From Minisyncoccota bacterium (lineage in GTDB: Bacteria; Patescibacteriota; Minisyncoccia; Phycocordibacterales; SBAW01): DNA of 64,000 nucleotides. A model generated the notes under the pieces. The model had not been told where the DNA came from. It ran no database searches and saw only the letters and a list, made by a program, of their open reading frames with translations. Position numbers and translations under genes: made by a program. The stretch covers positions 61,661-125,660 of the forward strand of contig DASZWM010000002.1 of assembly GCA_035546615.1 (NCBI GenBank), written 5' to 3'. Below, piece by piece: positions 6,215-59,098 of this stretch (its first letter is position 1; every line of letters starts with the position of its first letter).

Positions 6215-6526
6215 ATGAACGAGCTGGTGCATGCCGATATCTTCTTTTTTATAACGTCCGTTGCTGTCATAGCACTGTCGGCCGCCATGCTCGTCCTCCT
6301 CTTGTATCTTATTCCGGCCGCACGCGATCTGCGGTCGATTACGGCCAAAGTGCGGAAGGCCGGCGACGAGATGGAGAAGGATTTCGAGGACCTTCGCGCG
6401 AATCTGCGGGCGGAAGGTAGCAAGGGAAAGATGCTGGTAGATATCGTGCTCGGCTGGGCGGGCCACGTACTCAAGGCGCCCGCCGCGCGTCGGGCAAAGA
6501 AACAGCCGCCTTCATCCGAAGTTTAG
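6215..6526 (+). CDS. small membrane protein (N-terminal TM, coiled-coil C-term; DUF948-like)
   Basis: 103 aa; hydrophobic segment FFFITSVAVIALSAAMLVLLLYLI. Confidence 0.5.
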   Translation: MNELVHADIFFFITSVAVIALSAAMLVLLLYLIPAARDLRSITAKVRKAGDEMEKDFEDLRANLRAEGSKGKMLVDIVLGWAGHVLKAPAARRAKKQPPSSEV

Positions 6527-25124: not shown

Positions 25125-25153
25125 TTGACAATATCCGTTCTATTATATATAAT
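25125..25153 (+). promoter_or_regulatory. perfect sigma-70 consensus promoter TTGACA-N17-TATAAT upstream of the DEAD-box helicase
   Basis: ttgaca at 25125-25130, tataat at 25148-25153, 17-bp spacer; helicase ATG at 25183. Confidence 0.5.
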
Positions 25154-25182: not shown

Positions 25183-26421
25183 ATGTATCAAGGCAATTCT
25201 TCATCTCGCCGCCCTACTAACCGCTCCGGCGGCCGGCCTCAATTCGGTACCAGGAAGCCCTTTCACAGCGGCGGCCCTTCTAGGCGCTTTGCCCGCCCGG
25301 CTCCGCGCACGAACCATATCGACGTATCGCGCTATATCAACAAGGCGGTCATTACCGAGGAAGTGGAGCGCTTCGTGCCCGAGCACAAGTTCGCCGATTT
25401 CGCGCTTGATGAGCGCCTCAAGGCAAATATCGTAAAGAAAGGCTATGTCGAGCCGACGCCAATACAGGACCGCTCTATTCCGCACATCCTGCGCGGGGAA
25501 GACGTCGTCGGCATCGCCAATACCGGAACGGGCAAGACCGCGGCATTTCTCATACCGCTCATCCATAAAGCTATTACTCAACGCAGTGAGCGCGTGCTTG
25601 TTATGGTGCCCACGCGCGAGCTCGCCCAGCAGATAGCAGCGGAGCTCAAGGAGTTCACGCCGGGACTCCAGATATTCTCGGCAGTAGGCGTAGGCGGCGC
25701 GGGCATCGGCCCGCAGATGGCGGATCTCCGTAAGAAGCCGCAATTCGTTATCGGCACGCCGGGGCGCCTCAAGGACCTGCTCGAGCGCAAAGCGCTTATC
25801 CTCTCCAACTTCCAGACGGCGGTCCTCGACGAAGCCGACCGCATGCTCGACATGGGCTTTATCGCCGATATGCGCCGCATCCTTTCGCTTTTGCCTTCCC
25901 CGCGCCATACCCTTTTCTTTTCCGCGACGCTTTCCCCGGAAATAGAGAAGCTCATCGGCGAGTTCCTCCGCACGCCGGTGCGCGTCTCGGTTAAGACCCG
26001 CGACACCTCCTCGACCATCGACCAGGATGTCGTGCGCGTGGCACCCGGCACCAACAAGCTCGACGTCCTCCACGACATGCTCGTAAAGCCTGAGTTCAAC
26101 AAGGTGCTTATCTTCGGCCGCACCAAGCACGGCGTCGAGCGCCTCTCTAAAACGCTTGTGGAGCGCGGCTTCCGCGCGGAGTCCATTCACGGCAACAAGA
26201 CGCAGGGCAAGCGCCAGAAAGCGCTCGAGCTCTTCAAGCGCGACCATGTGCAGGTGCTCGTTGCGACCGACGTCGCCGCGCGCGGCCTGGACATCAACGG
26301 CGTCTCGCACGTCATCAACTATGACCTTCCTGCGTCGCATGAGGATTACATCCACCGCATCGGCCGCACCGGCCGGGCAGGGAAGAAGGGTCAGGCGCTT
26401 ACCTTTATCGACGGCAAGTAG
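25183..26421 (+). CDS. DEAD-box ATP-dependent RNA helicase (RhlE-like) with Arg/Gly-rich N-terminal tail
   Basis: 412 aa; Q-motif, GTGKT, DEAD, SAT, HRIGRTGR motifs. Confidence 0.9.
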   Translation: MYQGNSSSRRPTNRSGGRPQFGTRKPFHSGGPSRRFARPAPRTNHIDVSRYINKAVITEEVERFVPEHKFADFALDERLKANIVKKGYVEPTPIQDRSIPHILRGEDVVGIANTGTGKTAAFLIPLIHKAITQRSERVLVMVPTRELAQQIAAELKEFTPGLQIFSAVGVGGAGIGPQMADLRKKPQFVIGTPGRLKDLLERKALILSNFQTAVLDEADRMLDMGFIADMRRILSLLPSPRHTLFFSATLSPEIEKLIGEFLRTPVRVSVKTRDTSSTIDQDVVRVAPGTNKLDVLHDMLVKPEFNKVLIFGRTKHGVERLSKTLVERGFRAESIHGNKTQGKRQKALELFKRDHVQVLVATDVAARGLDINGVSHVINYDLPASHEDYIHRIGRTGRAGKKGQALTFIDGK

Positions 26422-34000: not shown

Positions 34001-36049
34001 ATGGCCAATTTCAAGCTCAAATCCGAATACGCTCCGGCCGGCGACCAACCCAAGGCTATCGAGGCGCTGGTAAAGGGTATCAAGGCGGGGGAGCGGCACC
34101 AGACGCTTCTTGGCGTTACAGGCTCCGGCAAGACATTCACCGCGGCGAACGTCATCGCGCAAATAGACAAGCCGACGCTCGTTATCGCGCACAACAAGAC
34201 GCTCGCGGCCCAGCTGGCGCAGGAGTATCGCGAGTTCTTCCCCGACGCGTCGGTGCAGTACTTCGTGTCCTACTACGACTATTACCAGCCGGAGGCGTAC
34301 ATCCCGCACAGCGACACCTATATAGAAAAGGAGGCGCAGATAAATGAAGAGATCGACCGTCTGCGCCACGCCTCGACCCAGGCGCTTCTTTCGCGCAAGG
34401 ACGTCATCATCGTCGCCTCCGTCTCCTGCATCTACGCGCTCGGCAGCCCCGAGGAATACCGCAAAGTGCACCTGGAGATAACGCCGGGGCGCAAAGTGAA
34501 CCGCGCGGAGCTTATCCGCGAGCTCATTTCTGTGTACTTCAGCCGCACGCCCGCCGACATCACGCCGGGCACGTTCCGCGCGCTCGGCAACTCCATCGAG
34601 ATAATGCCCACCGGCGAGCGCGTGCTCTACCGCGTCGAGTTCGAGGGCGAAACGATATCGCGCGTGCGCGTGATAGACGCGATAACCCGCGCGGAAGAGG
34701 CGCCGAAGACTTCGCTCTTCCTTTTTCCCGCAAAGCATTACGTAACGCCGGAGGATGAGCGCGTGCGGGCTATCGAGGACATCAAGCATGAGCTGAAGGA
34801 ACAGCTCGCCGAGTTCGAGCGCAAGGGCAAGGTGCTCGAGGCGGAGCGCCTCAAGCGCCGGACCAACCACGACCTCGCGATGATACGCGAGATAGGCTAT
34901 TGCAACGGCATCGAGAACTACTCGCGCCACTTCGACGGCCGGAGTCCCGGCCAGCCGCCGTTCTCGCTTCTTGAATACTTCCCGCACAAGAAGGACGGCA
35001 CGCCCGACTTCCTCACCATCATCGACGAAAGCCACGTAACCGTGCCGCAGATAGGCGGCATGTACGCCGGCGACCGCGCACGCAAGGAGAATCTCGTCGA
35101 GTACGGCTTCCGCCTGCCCAGCGCCATCGACAACCGGCCGCTGAAGTTCGAGGAGTTCGAGGAGCGCGTCGGGCAGGTCATCTACACGTCCGCTACCCCG
35201 GGCCCGTACGAAAAAGAGCACTCCGGAGCAAATGTTGTGGAGCAGATAATCCGCCCGACCGGGCTGGTTGATCCGGAAATCATAGTGCGCCCCGTAACGG
35301 GCGACCGCGACGCCGATCGCCGCGGCCAGGTGGAGGACTTCCTGGAGGAGGCCGACAAGGTCATCGAGCACGGCGGCCGCATCATGGTAACGACGCTCAC
35401 CAAGAAGATGGCCGAGGACCTCGCGGAGTTTTTGAAGGACCGCAAAATAAAAGCGGCGTATCTGCATAGCGACGTCGAGACCCTCGACCGCATCACGACG
35501 CTCACTGAACTCCGCCGCGGCATGTACGACGTGCTTGTGGGCGTGAACCTGCTTCGCGAGGGGCTGGACCTGCCGGAAGTCGAGCTTGTGGCTATCTTGG
35601 ACGCCGACAAATCGGGCTTCCTGCGCTCGGAGACCTCGCTTATCCAGACCATCGGCCGCGCGGCGCGCAATATCTTCGGCCGGGTCATCCTGTATGCCGA
35701 TGAAATGACGCCGCAGCTCACGAATGCCATAAACGAGACCAACCGCCGCCGCGCGATACAGGTTGCCTACAATACCGAGCACGGCATCACCCCGCAGACC
35801 ATCATAAAGAAGATAAAGGACATCACCGACGAGCTTAGAAGCGAGCACGGCAAGGCGGTGCACGAGATGCTCGAGATAGAGCAGAACGAATACAAGAAGA
35901 ATCCGCGCAAGTTCATCACGGCTAAGCGCGCCGAGATGGCCGAGGCGGTGAAGAACCTGGACTTCGAGACAGCGGCGCTTATCCGCGACGAGATATACGC
36001 CATAAGCGGGGAAGGAAGCGAAGGCAAGCCGAAAAAGGCGAAAAAATAA
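34001..36049 (+). CDS. uvrB: excinuclease ABC subunit B
   Basis: 682 aa; GVTGSGKTF, beta-hairpin region, helicase motifs, C-terminal UvrB-UvrC interaction motif. Confidence 0.95.
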   Translation: MANFKLKSEYAPAGDQPKAIEALVKGIKAGERHQTLLGVTGSGKTFTAANVIAQIDKPTLVIAHNKTLAAQLAQEYREFFPDASVQYFVSYYDYYQPEAYIPHSDTYIEKEAQINEEIDRLRHASTQALLSRKDVIIVASVSCIYALGSPEEYRKVHLEITPGRKVNRAELIRELISVYFSRTPADITPGTFRALGNSIEIMPTGERVLYRVEFEGETISRVRVIDAITRAEEAPKTSLFLFPAKHYVTPEDERVRAIEDIKHELKEQLAEFERKGKVLEAERLKRRTNHDLAMIREIGYCNGIENYSRHFDGRSPGQPPFSLLEYFPHKKDGTPDFLTIIDESHVTVPQIGGMYAGDRARKENLVEYGFRLPSAIDNRPLKFEEFEERVGQVIYTSATPGPYEKEHSGANVVEQIIRPTGLVDPEIIVRPVTGDRDADRRGQVEDFLEEADKVIEHGGRIMVTTLTKKMAEDLAEFLKDRKIKAAYLHSDVETLDRITTLTELRRGMYDVLVGVNLLREGLDLPEVELVAILDADKSGFLRSETSLIQTIGRAARNIFGRVILYADEMTPQLTNAINETNRRRAIQVAYNTEHGITPQTIIKKIKDITDELRSEHGKAVHEMLEIEQNEYKKNPRKFITAKRAEMAEAVKNLDFETAALIRDEIYAISGEGSEGKPKKAKK

Positions 36050-36553
36050 GGGCGTTTATATTGCCAAATCTAGAACTTATTGTGTAATATAAAGAGTACT
36101 TGCATGCCCGCGGCATTTGCTTACAATGGTCAATCTAACTCCTGGGCTGAAGTTTCTACGGTGCCGAGCAATCGGACGACTGGGAAATGGAAACCGGGGT
36201 TGAGGATCGAAAGGGATATAGGGCCGCAAGGTCCGGTATTCCGAGGAAAAGGCAGGGAGCAATCTTTGCCAGGAACTGCTAAGTTGGAAGCAGGCGCAAG
36301 CCCGCGGAAGACCCGAAGCGTTCTCAAGAGCTAGCAGTGAGGCATGAAGGCGCGAGTCGGCATGTTTACACAGAAGGATAGGCGAACCGAAAGGAACGCC
36401 AGTCCGGATAGCCTCCTCCCAAGCGCTGCTTACGTCGTGAAAACGAAGTCGGCTGACCAAGTTTCTGATCCGAGAAGGGTTCTGGCGCGCAAGTGCCAGG
36501 ACCCTTTTTCTTTTCATAACCCGGGACTATTTCTGCAAGCGCCCATAGGGCGC

Positions 36554-36582
36554 TTGACAAATACTTTAAATAGGTATATAAT
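36554..36582 (+). promoter_or_regulatory. perfect sigma-70 consensus promoter TTGACA-N17-TATAAT inside the uvrB-uvrA intergenic gap
   Basis: ttgaca 36554-36559, tataat 36577-36582, 17-bp spacer. Confidence 0.5.
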
Positions 36583-37054
36583 AGAGAGTAGAAGGCCGGG
36601 TCACTGCTGCGGAGGTACACCGCAGTTCGGCTGTTCGTAGGAGTTTTTCTTCCCGTGTCTCCGAAGCGTTTTTTTCGCGACGGCGCCATGACAACGAATG
36701 TGATGAGTAAACGGTATCGTGAGTAGATGGTCCACCATTCGCCCTTTTTCAAGGCGAGCGGTGGACCATCATTGTTTGTGGCATATGAGCACTCGCTTTG
36801 CTCGTCTCATATAACCGTCGCTCGCTCGGAAATACGCGCTGCGCGCTACCTGTCCCATATCTGTCCTAAAAAATAAGCAAGCTTCCTTTTTAGTCCATAT
36901 AATAGGGACAGCCGCAAGCTTTATTTCTCTCACTCGCTAGGTTATAATACTTGTGTATGTGTACCCCTTGGAGCGCTCCAAGGGCATATATGCGTGGACG
37001 ACGAACTTGTGTACGATTGGCGGCTCAATATCAAGGTCGAACCTTGCTGAAACT

Positions 37055-39709
37055 ATGGAAGACAAAATAACGATCAAAGGGGCGAAGACCCACAACCTCA
37101 AGAATGTCTCGCTGAGCATTCCGCGCAATAAGATGGTGATTTTCACGGGCCTCTCCGGTTCCGGGAAGTCGTCATTGGCATTCGATACTATTTTTGCCGA
37201 AGGCCAGCGCCGCTATGTTGAGTCCCTCTCCGCTTACGCGCGGCAATTCCTGCGCCAGATGCAGAAGCCCGACGTGGAGGAGATAACCGGACTCTCGCCG
37301 GCCATTTCCATCGACCAGAAATCGCGCTCCAACAATCCGCGCTCGACAGTGGCGACTATCACCGAGATCTACGACTATATGCGTATTTTGTTCGCGCGCG
37401 TCGGGAAGCCGCACTGCCTCGTATGCGGCCGCGAGATTAAGAAGCTTTCGAACGAAGAGATAATCCAGAGCATTGTCGACAGCGTCGGCAAATCCGCGCC
37501 GAAAAAGACCCGGAAGGTGATGGGCGTCGACATCCACGAGGACACGGTGAAGATATTCTCGCCGCTTGTGGTAGGTCGCAAGGGCGAGTACTACCAGCTC
37601 TTATACGACCTCCTCGGCAAGGGGTTTGAGAAGGCCAAGATTGACGGCACGGTTCGGAACCTGCGAGAACAAGTCATCCTTTCCAAATACCAGAAGCACA
37701 GCATCGACGCGCTCGTGGACGAGATACTGGTGACCGACTTTGCGCTTGCGCAAAAAGATTCAAAGCGCCGCGAAGCGGCGCTCGAGCGCCTTTCTGAAGC
37801 GGTGGAGCGCGCGCTCACCGAAAGCGACGGCCTGGTGAAGATAGAGGACGCGCACGGGGAGCGGCTCATTTCGGCCAAATTCATGTGCCCGTACGACGGG
37901 TTCTCGTTCCCGGAAGTGGAGCCGCGCCTGTTCTCGTTCAACTCGCCGTACGGCGCGTGTCCGGCCTGCAACGGGCTGGGCACCAAGCACTTCATGGGCG
38001 AGGAGCCGTGCGAAGTCTGCCACGGCGCGCGCCTGCGTCCCGAAGCGCTCAATGTATTTTTAGAGAAGGAGCAGAAGGATGCGGGCGAGCCTATGCCGGA
38101 GGCGTCTGTTCGCCGCAAGGAAGGGCGCTTCAATATCGTCGAGATAACCGATCTCTCGATACAGGACGCGCACGAGTACTTCATGGCGCTCAACCTTTCC
38201 AAAAAAGACCAGGAGATATCGAAAACCGTCATCAAGGAGATATGCGCGCGGCTGAAGTTCATGCTCGACGTGGGGCTCGACTACCTGACCCTCGACCGCC
38301 GCGCCAATACGCTCTCCGGCGGCGAAGCCCAGCGCATCCGTTTGGCTTCACAGCTGGGCTCCGGCCTCGTAGGCGCTTTGTACGTGCTCGATGAGCCGAC
38401 CATTGGCCTCCACCAGCGCGATAACGAGCGGCTTATAAAGACCCTCGTGAACCTGCGCGACCTGGGCAACACCATCATCGTAGTCGAGCACGACGAAGAC
38501 ACCATTTATTCCGGCGACTACCTCGTGGACATCGGCCCGGGCGCGGGCGTGCACGGCGGCCATGTGGTCGTGGCCGGCGACCTCGATAAATTGCTTACCG
38601 CTAAGAAGAACGACAGCGGCTCGGTAACGCTCGCGTATCTGCGCGGCGAGAAGGCGGTGCCTGTGCCGGACTATCGCCGCGACAAGGAGAAGGGGTGGAT
38701 AAAAATAAAAGGCGGCGAGGCGTTCAACATACATAATCTTTCCGTCGATATTCCGCTTGGGCGGCTCGTGGCGGTCACCGGCGTCTCGGGCTCGGGCAAA
38801 TCGACGTTCCTCTACGAGGTCTTGTACGAGAACCTGCGCGCGCGCTTCGACAAGCGCTACCGCACCAGCAAGGTGTTCAACGCCGCGAGCGTCGAAGGCA
38901 TGGAAAATTTGAGCCGAGCGATACTCATCGACCAATCGCCGATAGGCCGCACGCCTAGAAGCAACCCCGCAACCTACACCGGCGCATTTACCTTCGTGCG
39001 CGACCTGTTCGCCGAGACTAACGAGGCGCGCGCGCGCGGCTGGAAGTCCAGCAGGTTCTCCTTCAATGTGCCGCAGTCGCGCGGCGGCGGCCGCTGCGAG
39101 GCGTGCGAGGGCAACGGCACCATCGCGGTGGAGATGGCGTTCTTGCCGACCGTGTATGTCACCTGCGACGTATGCAACGGCAAGCGCTTTATGAAGGAAA
39201 CGCTCGAGGTCAAATACAAGAAGAAGAACGTATACGAGGTGCTCGACATGTCCGTGGAGGAGGCGCTCGCGTTCTTCAACGACATTCCGGCTATCTACGA
39301 CCGCTTGAAGACGCTTGAGGAGGTGGGACTCGGCTATCTGAAGCTGGGGCAGTCCGCCACGACGCTCTCCGGCGGCGAAGCGCAGCGCGTGAAAATATCC
39401 GCCGAGCTCTATAAGCCGCATCTGCAGAAGACCATCTACCTGCTGGACGAGCCGACGGTCGGCCTCCACTACGAGGACGTGCAGAAGCTCATTGATATAT
39501 TGAACCGGCTGGTAAACGCGGGGAACTCGGTCGTGCTTATCGAGCATAATATGGACATCATCAAGAACGCCGACTGGCTGCTCGATTTCGGGCCGGAAGG
39601 GGGAGTGGGCGGCGGGAAGCTGGTGGCAAAAGGCACGCCGGAGGACGTGGCCAACAGCAAACATTCCCATACCGGCAGATACCTGCAGAAAATATTGAAA
39701 GGAAAATAG
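37055..39709 (+). CDS. uvrA: excinuclease ABC subunit A
   Basis: About 884 aa from ATG 37055; two ABC ATPase modules ([22 protein letters not shown]), zinc fingers. Confidence 0.95.
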
Positions 39710-58333: not shown

Positions 58334-58385
58334 AACCAGCGAGGTCCGACCTTGATATCAAGGTCCGACCTCGCTGAAAACAAGT

Positions 58386-58774: not shown

Positions 58775-59005
58775 CTATTCGGGCTTGATGCCCAGTAGCG
58801 TCACCAAGAATTGCTCTCTGCTGCGGTCGAGGGGGGTAAGAGTGTGGGAAATGGTATTCGGCAGAACCCCTTCGCTCAGGAGATGCCGGGTTTCCTGAAT
58901 CAGTATTCCGCTCAGGCGTTCTTCGTATTCCCGGTTCGACAATCTCCCGGGCGTGAGTCCCGACATACCGAAGGTGATAACTCTGCAAACCGGCTTTCCG
59001 CTCAT
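58775..59005 (-). CDS. hypothetical small protein
   Basis: 76-aa ORF in an AT-rich stretch, followed by its own terminator. Confidence 0.35.
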   Translation of the reverse strand: MSGKPVCRVITFGMSGLTPGRLSNREYEERLSGILIQETRHLLSEGVLPNTISHTLTPLDRSREQFLVTLLGIKPE

Positions 59006-59070
59006 GGTCTCATTCCTCTGTTCAGAGTGGCAGGTAACTTTCTATATAATTATACACCCAACTAAAGTAT

Positions 59071-59098
59071 TTGTCAAGTTTTAGAAATCGTGTAAAAT
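59071..59098 (+). promoter_or_regulatory. near-consensus sigma-70 promoter (TTGTCA-N16-TAAAAT) upstream of tRNA-Ala(GGC)
   Basis: ttgtca 59071-59076, taaaat 59093-59098. Confidence 0.4.

Follow-up and report, generated by a model that had tools for sequence, protein, structure and literature searches.

The 1005-nt gap between uvrB and uvrA in a Candidatus Paceibacterota genome (Patescibacteria/CPR, G+C ~60%) is likely an island of two autonomous noncoding RNA genes, termed here RNA A and RNA B, whose products might act in trans, and not a regulatory leader of uvrA. Within the window, by which we mean the whole 64-kb stretch of DNA that was analyzed, uvrB occupies 34001..36049 and uvrA begins with an ATG at 37055; both identities are backed by homologues, and 100%-identical proteins in public collections bear those names. 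The gap (36050..37054) is the longest noncoding stretch of a window that is ~89% coding, the second-largest gap being at most 579 nt. It is a mosaic of separate units, namely RNA A, RNA B, a filler segment D and the control region of uvrA, with the following features.

36061..36090, + strand: promoter-like site of RNA A (TTGCCA, 18-nt spacer, TAATAT), with 9/12 matches in a promoter scan
~36097..36514, + strand: RNA A, a candidate large structured noncoding RNA of ~418 nt, delimited by promoter, terminator, fold and homologues
36472..36518, + strand: intrinsic terminator of RNA A from a terminator scan, with a 17-bp GC-rich stem (36472..36509), a GCAA loop and then TTTTTCTTTT
36539..36553, + strand: short GC hairpin gcgccc-ata-gggcgc, read from the sequence and directly abutting the −35 hexamer of RNA B
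36554..36582, + strand: promoter of RNA B, a perfect sigma-70 consensus (TTGACA-17-TATAAT), 12/12 in the promoter scan
~36589..36780, + strand: RNA B, a candidate RNA of ~190 nt, delimited by promoter, conserved 3' hairpin, profile and consensus fold
36785..36925, + strand: segment D, filler or repeat-like, with an imperfect inverted repeat (I2) at 36858..36901
36943..37054, + strand: promoter and 5' UTR of uvrA, with invariant or nearly invariant blocks in a ten-genome alignment
36943..36948, + strand: −10 element of uvrA (TATAAT), from the same alignment
36951..36958, + strand: TTGTGTAT, an operator-like repeat in the uvrA 5' region
36965..36984, + strand: covarying GC hairpin CCCTTGGAGC/GCTCCAAGGG, a perfect 10+10 inverted repeat (I7)
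37007..37014, + strand: second copy of the operator-like repeat, TTGTGTAC, in the uvrA 5' UTR

The preliminary description of this DNA had remarked on the unusual length of the gap and on its want of a credible open reading frame, and both remarks hold. ORFs within the gap have no Pfam matches, and the longest of them (146 aa, antisense) has no relative among 5.8 billion proteins or among 1.84 billion representative proteins. For comparison, we used the uvrB–uvrA region of nine related genomes, found via their UvrB and UvrA proteins. In L083 and L084, the one pair of relatives with alignable spacers, substitutions in the spacer fall evenly across the three codon phases, in contrast to 17/9/154 in uvrB, and just 4 of the 23 indels have a length divisible by three. 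The gap is thus noncoding. It also contains no tandem guide arrays and no CRISPR or TIGR-like repeats that we could find.

RNA A would be read from the promoter-like site at 36061..36090, a weak match to consensus that is set within an AT-rich inverted repeat (I3, 36055..36093). Its arrangement is shared with L083 and L084: in all three genomes, TTGCCAAA lies exactly 30 nt upstream of CTTGCATG, and 26 of 46 positions are invariant. The 5' end of the predicted RNA is an invariant CUUGCAUG at 36099..36106. At the other end, the 17-bp terminator stem with its following T run is the strongest feature in the gap, and its position is kept, with compensatory changes, in L083 and L084. With a promoter-like site and an intrinsic terminator of its own and no coding potential, RNA A has what is generically looked for in a stand-alone noncoding RNA gene. 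This terminator and promoter-like site, as well as the proximal promoter of uvrA considered below, were absent from the preliminary description.

The predicted fold of RNA A is strand specific and unusually uniform in its loops. Compared with shuffled sequences, the segment 36095..36516 gives z = -3.1 on the + strand and z = -0.1 on the - strand. All seven hairpins of the minimum-energy fold are capped by GNRA loops (at 36168, 36226, 36259, 36296, 36389, 36439 and 36489); shuffled sequences yield a mean of 0.28 GNRA-capped hairpins and a maximum of 2, the reverse strand of RNA A has one among nine hairpins, and one per strand is the most seen in the window's other long gaps, the majority of which have none. 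The copies in the relatives also fold stably and are rich in such loops (GNRA on 7 of 10 hairpins with z = -7.3 in L083; 5 of 13 with z = -5.8 in L084). The invariant 5' end, (A)CUUG/CAUG, could pair with conserved CAAGU and CAUGA further along. A different closing helix had been proposed earlier, a P1-like pairing of cttgca with tgcaag; the letters are there, but this helix would span the strong terminator, and L083 has no TGCAAG past its terminator.

Homologues of RNA A lie at 6444..6966 in L083 and 6434..6978 in L084, the window copy being shorter by 65 to 85 nt. RNA A and RNA B are known from these three genomes, of which L083 and L084 are mutually close, and no partner protein gene travels with either RNA. 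A sequence profile built from L083 and L084 only did not detect RNA A in the window. A covariance model of the 3' domain (a GNRA hairpin between two CCAAG motifs, with the terminator after them), also built from L083 and L084 only, matches at a single place in the entire window (36411..36517, with 19.2 bits and a rough E of 1.6e-4); the best match of the corresponding mid-domain model falls at the expected 36195..36275 and is not significant (6.3 bits, E = 0.35). Based on these profile and model results, RNA A appears to be homologous at both ends, with a diverged middle.

Compensatory change points in the same direction. The consensus fold of RNA A in L083 and L084 keeps 140 pairs, 15 of which are changed on both sides, compared with 0 to 1 in slid controls, and the 3' domain shows 9 compensatory pairs across the three genomes, compared with 0 to 2 in slid controls. 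The comparison with homologous spacers that had been suggested at the outset therefore does return compensatory pairs above the controls, but as statistics these counts are weak, coming from three genomes and from structures derived from the same alignments. Among these genomes, identity at the fourfold-degenerate sites of uvrB is only 43 to 65%. Sequence free of constraint should thus be near scrambled, and the structure that is retained implies selection. The core of the earlier proposal, that at least one structured noncoding RNA is encoded here, is thus backed by comparative evidence; its details differ from the arrangement that had been drawn.

RNA B would be read from the perfect consensus promoter at 36554..36582, which was recognized in the preliminary description and is far above chance: the window has four sites with at most one mismatch to TTGACA-17-TATAAT, three of them perfect, where 0.08 are expected. 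The promoter is kept as TTGACAAAT...TATAAT in L084 or TATGAT in L083, and in both of these genomes a hairpin lies directly upstream of the homologous TTGACA, as the previously noted gcgccc-ata-gggcgc hairpin does in the window. The RNA itself comprises a 5' stem-loop (~36593..36636), within which lies ctgcgg/ccgcag (36607..36625); an internal T7 run (36669..36675); and, at 36726..36770, a 3' hairpin formed by the imperfect 18-nt inverted repeat that had also been pointed out, with AUUGUUUGU after it. Both the 5' stem-loop and the 3' hairpin (GAUGGYCCRCC...GGYGGRCCAU) are conserved in L083 and L084. The minimum-energy fold has z = -2.6, and in the three genomes these folds are branched, with a self-contained 3' hairpin. 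A profile built from L083 and L084 only finds RNA B at 36554..36786 (E = 3.8e-8), provided that the profile takes in the promoter region, and the three-genome consensus fold contains 8 compensatory pairs, some of them in the 3' hairpin. We considered a small conserved peptide within RNA B and rejected it, as the GTG ORFs of 23 to 29 aa are unconserved in sequence when compared by eye.

The preliminary description had suggested a small RNA of ~85 nt ending at the T7 run. The ctgcgg/ccgcag hairpin and the T7 run on which it was based are present, but an end at this point is improbable, the conserved block running on to ~190 nt. The transcript probably ends past the T7 run, at the 36726..36770 hairpin, because conserved sequence and structure continue up to there and the T7 run was not flagged by the terminator scan.

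In nearly all of the nine relatives the gene order flanking the spacer is the same, but the spacer differs greatly among the ten genomes (80 bp to 2.3 kb), with the following contents.

L085, 80 bp: uvrA promoter region only
L086, 178 bp: uvrA promoter region and a D-like insertion
L093, ~460 bp: AT-rich, without any of the RNAs
L082, ~630 bp: RNA C
L094, ~640 bp: RNA C
Window, 1005 bp: RNA A, RNA B and segment D
L083 and L084, ~1120 bp: RNA B, RNA A and RNA E
L081, ~1350 bp: an HD-domain-like ORF and RNA C
L092, 2.3 kb: small ORFs, a Y1-transposase-like gene and another RNA candidate

The two shortest spacers thus have neither RNA A nor RNA B, and the Y1-transposase-like gene of the longest is flanked by palindromes. 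In L083 and L084 (89% UvrB identity), the order of RNA A and RNA B is opposite to that in the window: there, RNA B precedes both RNA A and a further terminated unit, and does not adjoin uvrA. A scan of GTDB species-representative genomes with UvrB returned, as best relatives, Patescibacteria that are at most 68% identical, and their spacers have no DNA similarity to the gap.

RNA C, the alternative occupant, is 430 to 520 nt long and is found in L081, L082 and L094 with a conserved promoter and terminator of its own. Its fold is very stable relative to shuffled sequence (z = -7 to -10.7); 31 of 90 pairs show compensatory changes between L081 and L082, and the core has 9 compensatory pairs, compared with 1 to 3 in slid controls. 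We asked whether RNA A could be a diverged RNA C and rejected this, as nhmmer profiles of the two do not cross-detect and the gap gave no match to the RNA C core when searched with its covariance model. By UvrB identity the window is nearer to the RNA C carriers L081 and L082 (91 to 93%) than to the RNA A carriers (89%); the slot has thus been re-filled in recent evolution. Judged from these sequences, the spacer appears to be a landing pad of variable content where orphan genes for structured RNAs settle. Given their restriction to a few genomes and their replacement in close relatives, the RNAs could be dispensable or selfish.

The main rival to an island of autonomous RNA genes holds that the RNAs came with mobile or selfish elements in a uvrB–uvrA hot spot, as their cargo or as what is left of them, for instance guide-like or antitoxin-like RNAs or decayed insertion sequences, with a structure that serves the element and not the cell. 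Such a history would fit a spacer that ranges from 80 bp to 2.3 kb in close relatives with differing contents, an order of RNA A and RNA B that differs between genomes, and the recurrence elsewhere of parts of segment D and the uvrA 5' UTR. However, no terminal repeats, target duplications or transposase stand beside RNA A or RNA B in the window, and neither RNA has an extra copy in the 64 kb or in the other loci compared. Searches of phages and plasmids (blastn) and of viral contigs (pattern scans, then nhmmer) gave no matches, and the many-hairpin, GNRA-rich fold of RNA A is no simple palindrome. We regard the mobile-element explanation as unlikely.

To place the RNAs among known families, we searched Rfam. 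At gathering scores, the whole window contains six tRNAs only; with E up to 10 over 35950..37150, only sub-threshold matches appeared, the best being look-alikes of terminator hairpins. The same search of five related loci returned only tRNAs, terminator look-alikes and a tmRNA in L081, a permuted gene beside uvrB that both ARAGORN and Rfam detect (Rfam, 182 bits); neither program finds a tmRNA in the window. The detection of the L081 gene at this score indicates that the housekeeping RNAs of the clade are within reach of the models. The Rfam check for RNase P, SRP, 6S and tmRNA and for riboswitches, which had been recommended along with the initial proposal, accordingly gave no family match over the gap. 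Several candidates were rejected individually. RNase P RNA has no match to RNaseP_bact_a or RNaseP_bact_b in the window or the homologous loci, and SRP RNA (bacterial models with the domain IV motif) none in the gap or the homologous loci. There is likewise no Rfam match for 6S RNA, and in each of the three genomes RNA B is predicted to fold into a branched shape, not a rod with a central bubble. OLE, ROOL, GOLLD, raiA and HEARO gave no Rfam match at any threshold used. Group II intron domain V and the hammerhead also had no Rfam match, and the terminator hairpin has neither the bulge nor the AGC triad. A metagenome scan with the RNA A promoter and 5'-end pattern produced five chance matches, all inside coding regions, and we found no description in the literature of such large RNAs in this radiation. 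RNA A and RNA B belong to no Rfam family and are probably orphan structured bacterial RNA genes.

These searches bear on a second alternative, in which one of the two RNAs is a strongly diverged RNase P RNA, SRP RNA, tmRNA or 6S RNA that standard models miss. The usual large or abundant RNAs with promoters of their own do belong to these classes, the L081 tmRNA gene adjoins uvrB and so places RNA genes in this neighborhood, and 6S RNA is poorly conserved in sequence; furthermore, the strings GAGGAAA and GGUCCGG in the gap are reminiscent of RNase P and SRP RNA cores. It was from such islands that an RNase P or SRP likeness had been read at first, a likeness that does not survive comparison: the SRP-like and RNase P-like strings, those resembling P4 included, are unconserved in L083 and L084. 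Moreover, no Rfam family matches the gap at E = 10 save the terminator look-alikes and ARAGORN finds no tmRNA, even though the same Rfam library finds the L081 tmRNA at 182 bits. The branched minimum-energy fold of RNA B is not the 6S rod with its central bubble, and RNA A is replaced in genomes with 91 to 93% UvrB identity, unlike an essential orthologue. Taken together, we consider a missed housekeeping RNA highly improbable.

Downstream of RNA B, segment D (fold z = -2.3) has flanks that resemble, by eye, an insertion in the uvrA 5' UTR of L086. It is followed by the only part of the spacer that can be aligned across all ten genomes, the last 70 to 110 nt before uvrA. All ten have the extended −10 sequence TGTGGTATAAT, which in the window reads TTATAAT, and most of them have the second TTGTGTAT. 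This element lies ~110 nt upstream of the ATG, persists in relatives with spacers of 80 to 180 bp, and is the sole remainder of the 80-bp spacer of L085. These sequence features suggest that uvrA has a proximal promoter to itself and is transcribed apart from the two RNAs.

The preliminary description had offered, as an alternative to the small RNA, a 465-nt structured leader of uvrA starting at the 36554 promoter. We find this leader unsupported, because the control block is conserved in ten genomes and is all that the L085 spacer contains. In addition, two terminator hairpins (36472..36509 and 36726..36770) intervene, and the uvrA genes of relatives do without RNA A or RNA B, so that we rejected a cis-regulatory leader or riboswitch of uvrA as a candidate family as well. 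In its general form, the proposal that the gap is a long structured leader or cis-regulatory region of uvrA, from the 36554 promoter or otherwise, is very doubtful: the perfect promoter does point toward uvrA and structured elements do lie between it and the ATG, but a conserved hairpin with a U-rich tract closes the RNA B block at ~36780, the extended −10, the TTGTGTAT repeats and the hairpin lie within ~110 nt of the ATG in ten genomes, relatives with spacers of 80 to 180 bp keep this proximal element alone, and RNA B does not adjoin uvrA in L083 and L084.

Returning to the island of autonomous RNA genes, we propose that RNA A is read from the TTGCCA/TAATAT promoter, ends at its strong intrinsic terminator, and folds into a multi-hairpin RNA capped by GNRA loops, and that RNA B is read from the perfect consensus promoter and ends at its conserved hairpin. 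That the two RNAs are actually made is inferred from their sequence signals. RNA A might work in trans as a compactly folded RNA, for example as a scaffold for bound proteins or as a catalytic RNA stabilized by contacts of its tetraloops, by analogy with other large orphan bacterial RNAs; this proposal stems from its exclusive GNRA loops, the pairable invariant 5' end, and a structure kept despite saturating divergence. RNA B may be a small trans-acting RNA, and a probably abundant one given its perfect consensus promoter. The functions proposed for the two RNAs are guesses, which we would sooner expect to prove wrong than right. As a bolder and still tentative possibility, RNA A and, separately, RNA C could be new Paceibacterota-specific classes of ornate, GNRA-rich RNAs of 420 to 520 nt that occupy an exchangeable uvrB–uvrA slot and act in these ultra-small symbionts as ribozymes, as assemblies made of RNA only or as ribonucleoprotein scaffolds.

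Large, highly structured bacterial RNAs with no assigned function are rare, and several have proved remarkable, as ribozymes, membrane-bound particles or RNA cages; we know of no description of such ornate RNAs in ultra-small symbiotic bacteria. Patescibacteria have tiny genomes (~1 Mb), and in a window that is ~89% coding, the allotment of 1 kb to noncoding RNA genes suggests real use. If they are expressed, RNA A, RNA B and RNA C would be new families of structured RNA to characterize, and the slot would exemplify an exchangeable site for RNA genes. The repeats and hairpin upstream of uvrA would then also offer a conserved candidate for a damage-response operator, in a group whose gene regulation is, to our knowledge, essentially undescribed. 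The practical value of these RNAs is limited by their very narrow known distribution.

Several known systems resemble parts of this arrangement. As in sRNA islands, one spacer would hold several independently transcribed, terminator-bounded units, and the content of the spacer varies among close relatives; the usual islands differ in that here the host is a reduced-genome member of the Patescibacteria, the units are unusually large and structured, and an alternative RNA C can occupy the site. RNA B is like 6S and other abundant small RNAs in its length of ~190 nt and its position behind a strong (here perfect consensus) promoter, and unlike 6S RNA in its branched shape, its separate 3' terminator hairpin and its narrow distribution. 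RNA A shares with RNase P RNA a length of ~400 nt, GNRA-capped helices, a promoter of its own, and purine-rich strings that recall P4; in contrast to RNase P RNA, it is replaced by an unrelated RNA in sister genomes, and its P4-like strings are unconserved. OLE, ROOL, GOLLD and raiA motif RNAs are, like the predicted RNA A, stand-alone noncoding RNAs of several hundred nucleotides with many hairpins, with tetraloops fit for tertiary contacts and with no capacity to encode protein. RNA A is shorter than OLE, ROOL and GOLLD and is known from only three genomes, all of one Paceibacterota clade, with no associated protein genes or phage context seen. Among the systems compared, these four are nevertheless the nearest model for the way in which RNA A could function.

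The uvrB-uvrA spacer is the site, in three relatives, of RNA C, which carries a conserved promoter of its own (TTATCCACTTGT...) and a terminator, folds with z-scores of -7 to -10.7 and shows numerous compensatory changes. RNA C is a second orphan structured RNA, with no kinship to RNA A, one of the two candidate non-coding RNAs in the spacer of the window. The following features lie in the spacers of relatives:

L081:6893-7316, L082:6152-6604 and L094:3407-3922: RNA C, orphan structured RNA, 430 to 520 nt
L083:6962-7082 and L084:6972-7094: RNA E, a further candidate RNA of ~120 nt, which follows RNA A and precedes the uvrA promoter
L092:7153-7390: candidate RNA of ~190 to 230 nt behind TTGACG-17-TATAAT
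L092:7443-8096: Y1-transposase-like (RAYT-like) gene with TTCCAAGGGTAACCCTTGGAA palindromes on both flanks
L081:6102-6863, - strand: HD-domain-like ORF (judged by eye, no Pfam hit on record)

RNA E, which is not present in the window, consists of two GC-rich hairpins in tandem, and a T run comes after the second of them. The inserted HD-domain-like ORF, with uvrB on one side and RNA C on the other, adds to the evidence for a hot spot of insertion in this spacer. Immediately upstream of uvrB in the same Paceibacterota assembly lies a permuted (two-piece) tmRNA gene (L081:3595-3983, - strand; alpha_tmRNA, 182 bits; tmRNA_permuted, 100 bits); the corresponding position holds no tmRNA in the window or in the other relatives.

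Two pieces of the window itself may be dispersed or movable. Segment D, a repeat-like filler (window:36785-36925), is similar to L086:6140-6232. In the window it stands upstream of the uvrA promoter with an additional ~85-nt hairpin; the similar stretch of L086 is an insertion placed after the uvrA hairpin and before the start codon. Segment D looks like a movable piece. The second is a palindromic hairpin that could be a small dispersed repeat; one of its arms is similar to an insertion in the uvrA 5' UTR of the window that is missing from the relatives. This hairpin and the other perfect consensus promoters of the window are as follows:

58337-58379: palindromic hairpin (GGTCGGACCTTGATATCAAGGTCGGACC), one arm of which resembles the insertion at 37025-37050
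59049-59077, - strand: second perfect consensus promoter (TTGACAAATACTTTA...)
58775-59005, - strand: 76-aa ORF, preceded by the 59049-59077 promoter
25125-25153, + strand: third perfect TTGACA-17-TATAAT, with a 412-aa ORF (25183..26421) downstream of it

Because the second promoter is the same as that of RNA B, the other candidate RNA of the window's spacer, at ~26/30 positions, the pair suggests a duplicated promoter module. The 412-aa ORF behind the third is probably a highly expressed gene.

The uvrA control region (window:36943-37014) is conserved at the equivalent place in L081-L086 and L092-L094. It is composed of an extended -10 promoter, the TTGTGTAT repeat in one or two copies and, within the 5' UTR, a GC hairpin that covaries. 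We regard the region as a candidate operator of the damage response, or a candidate RNA element, in this phylum. In appearance it is unlike the classical form of the LexA box.
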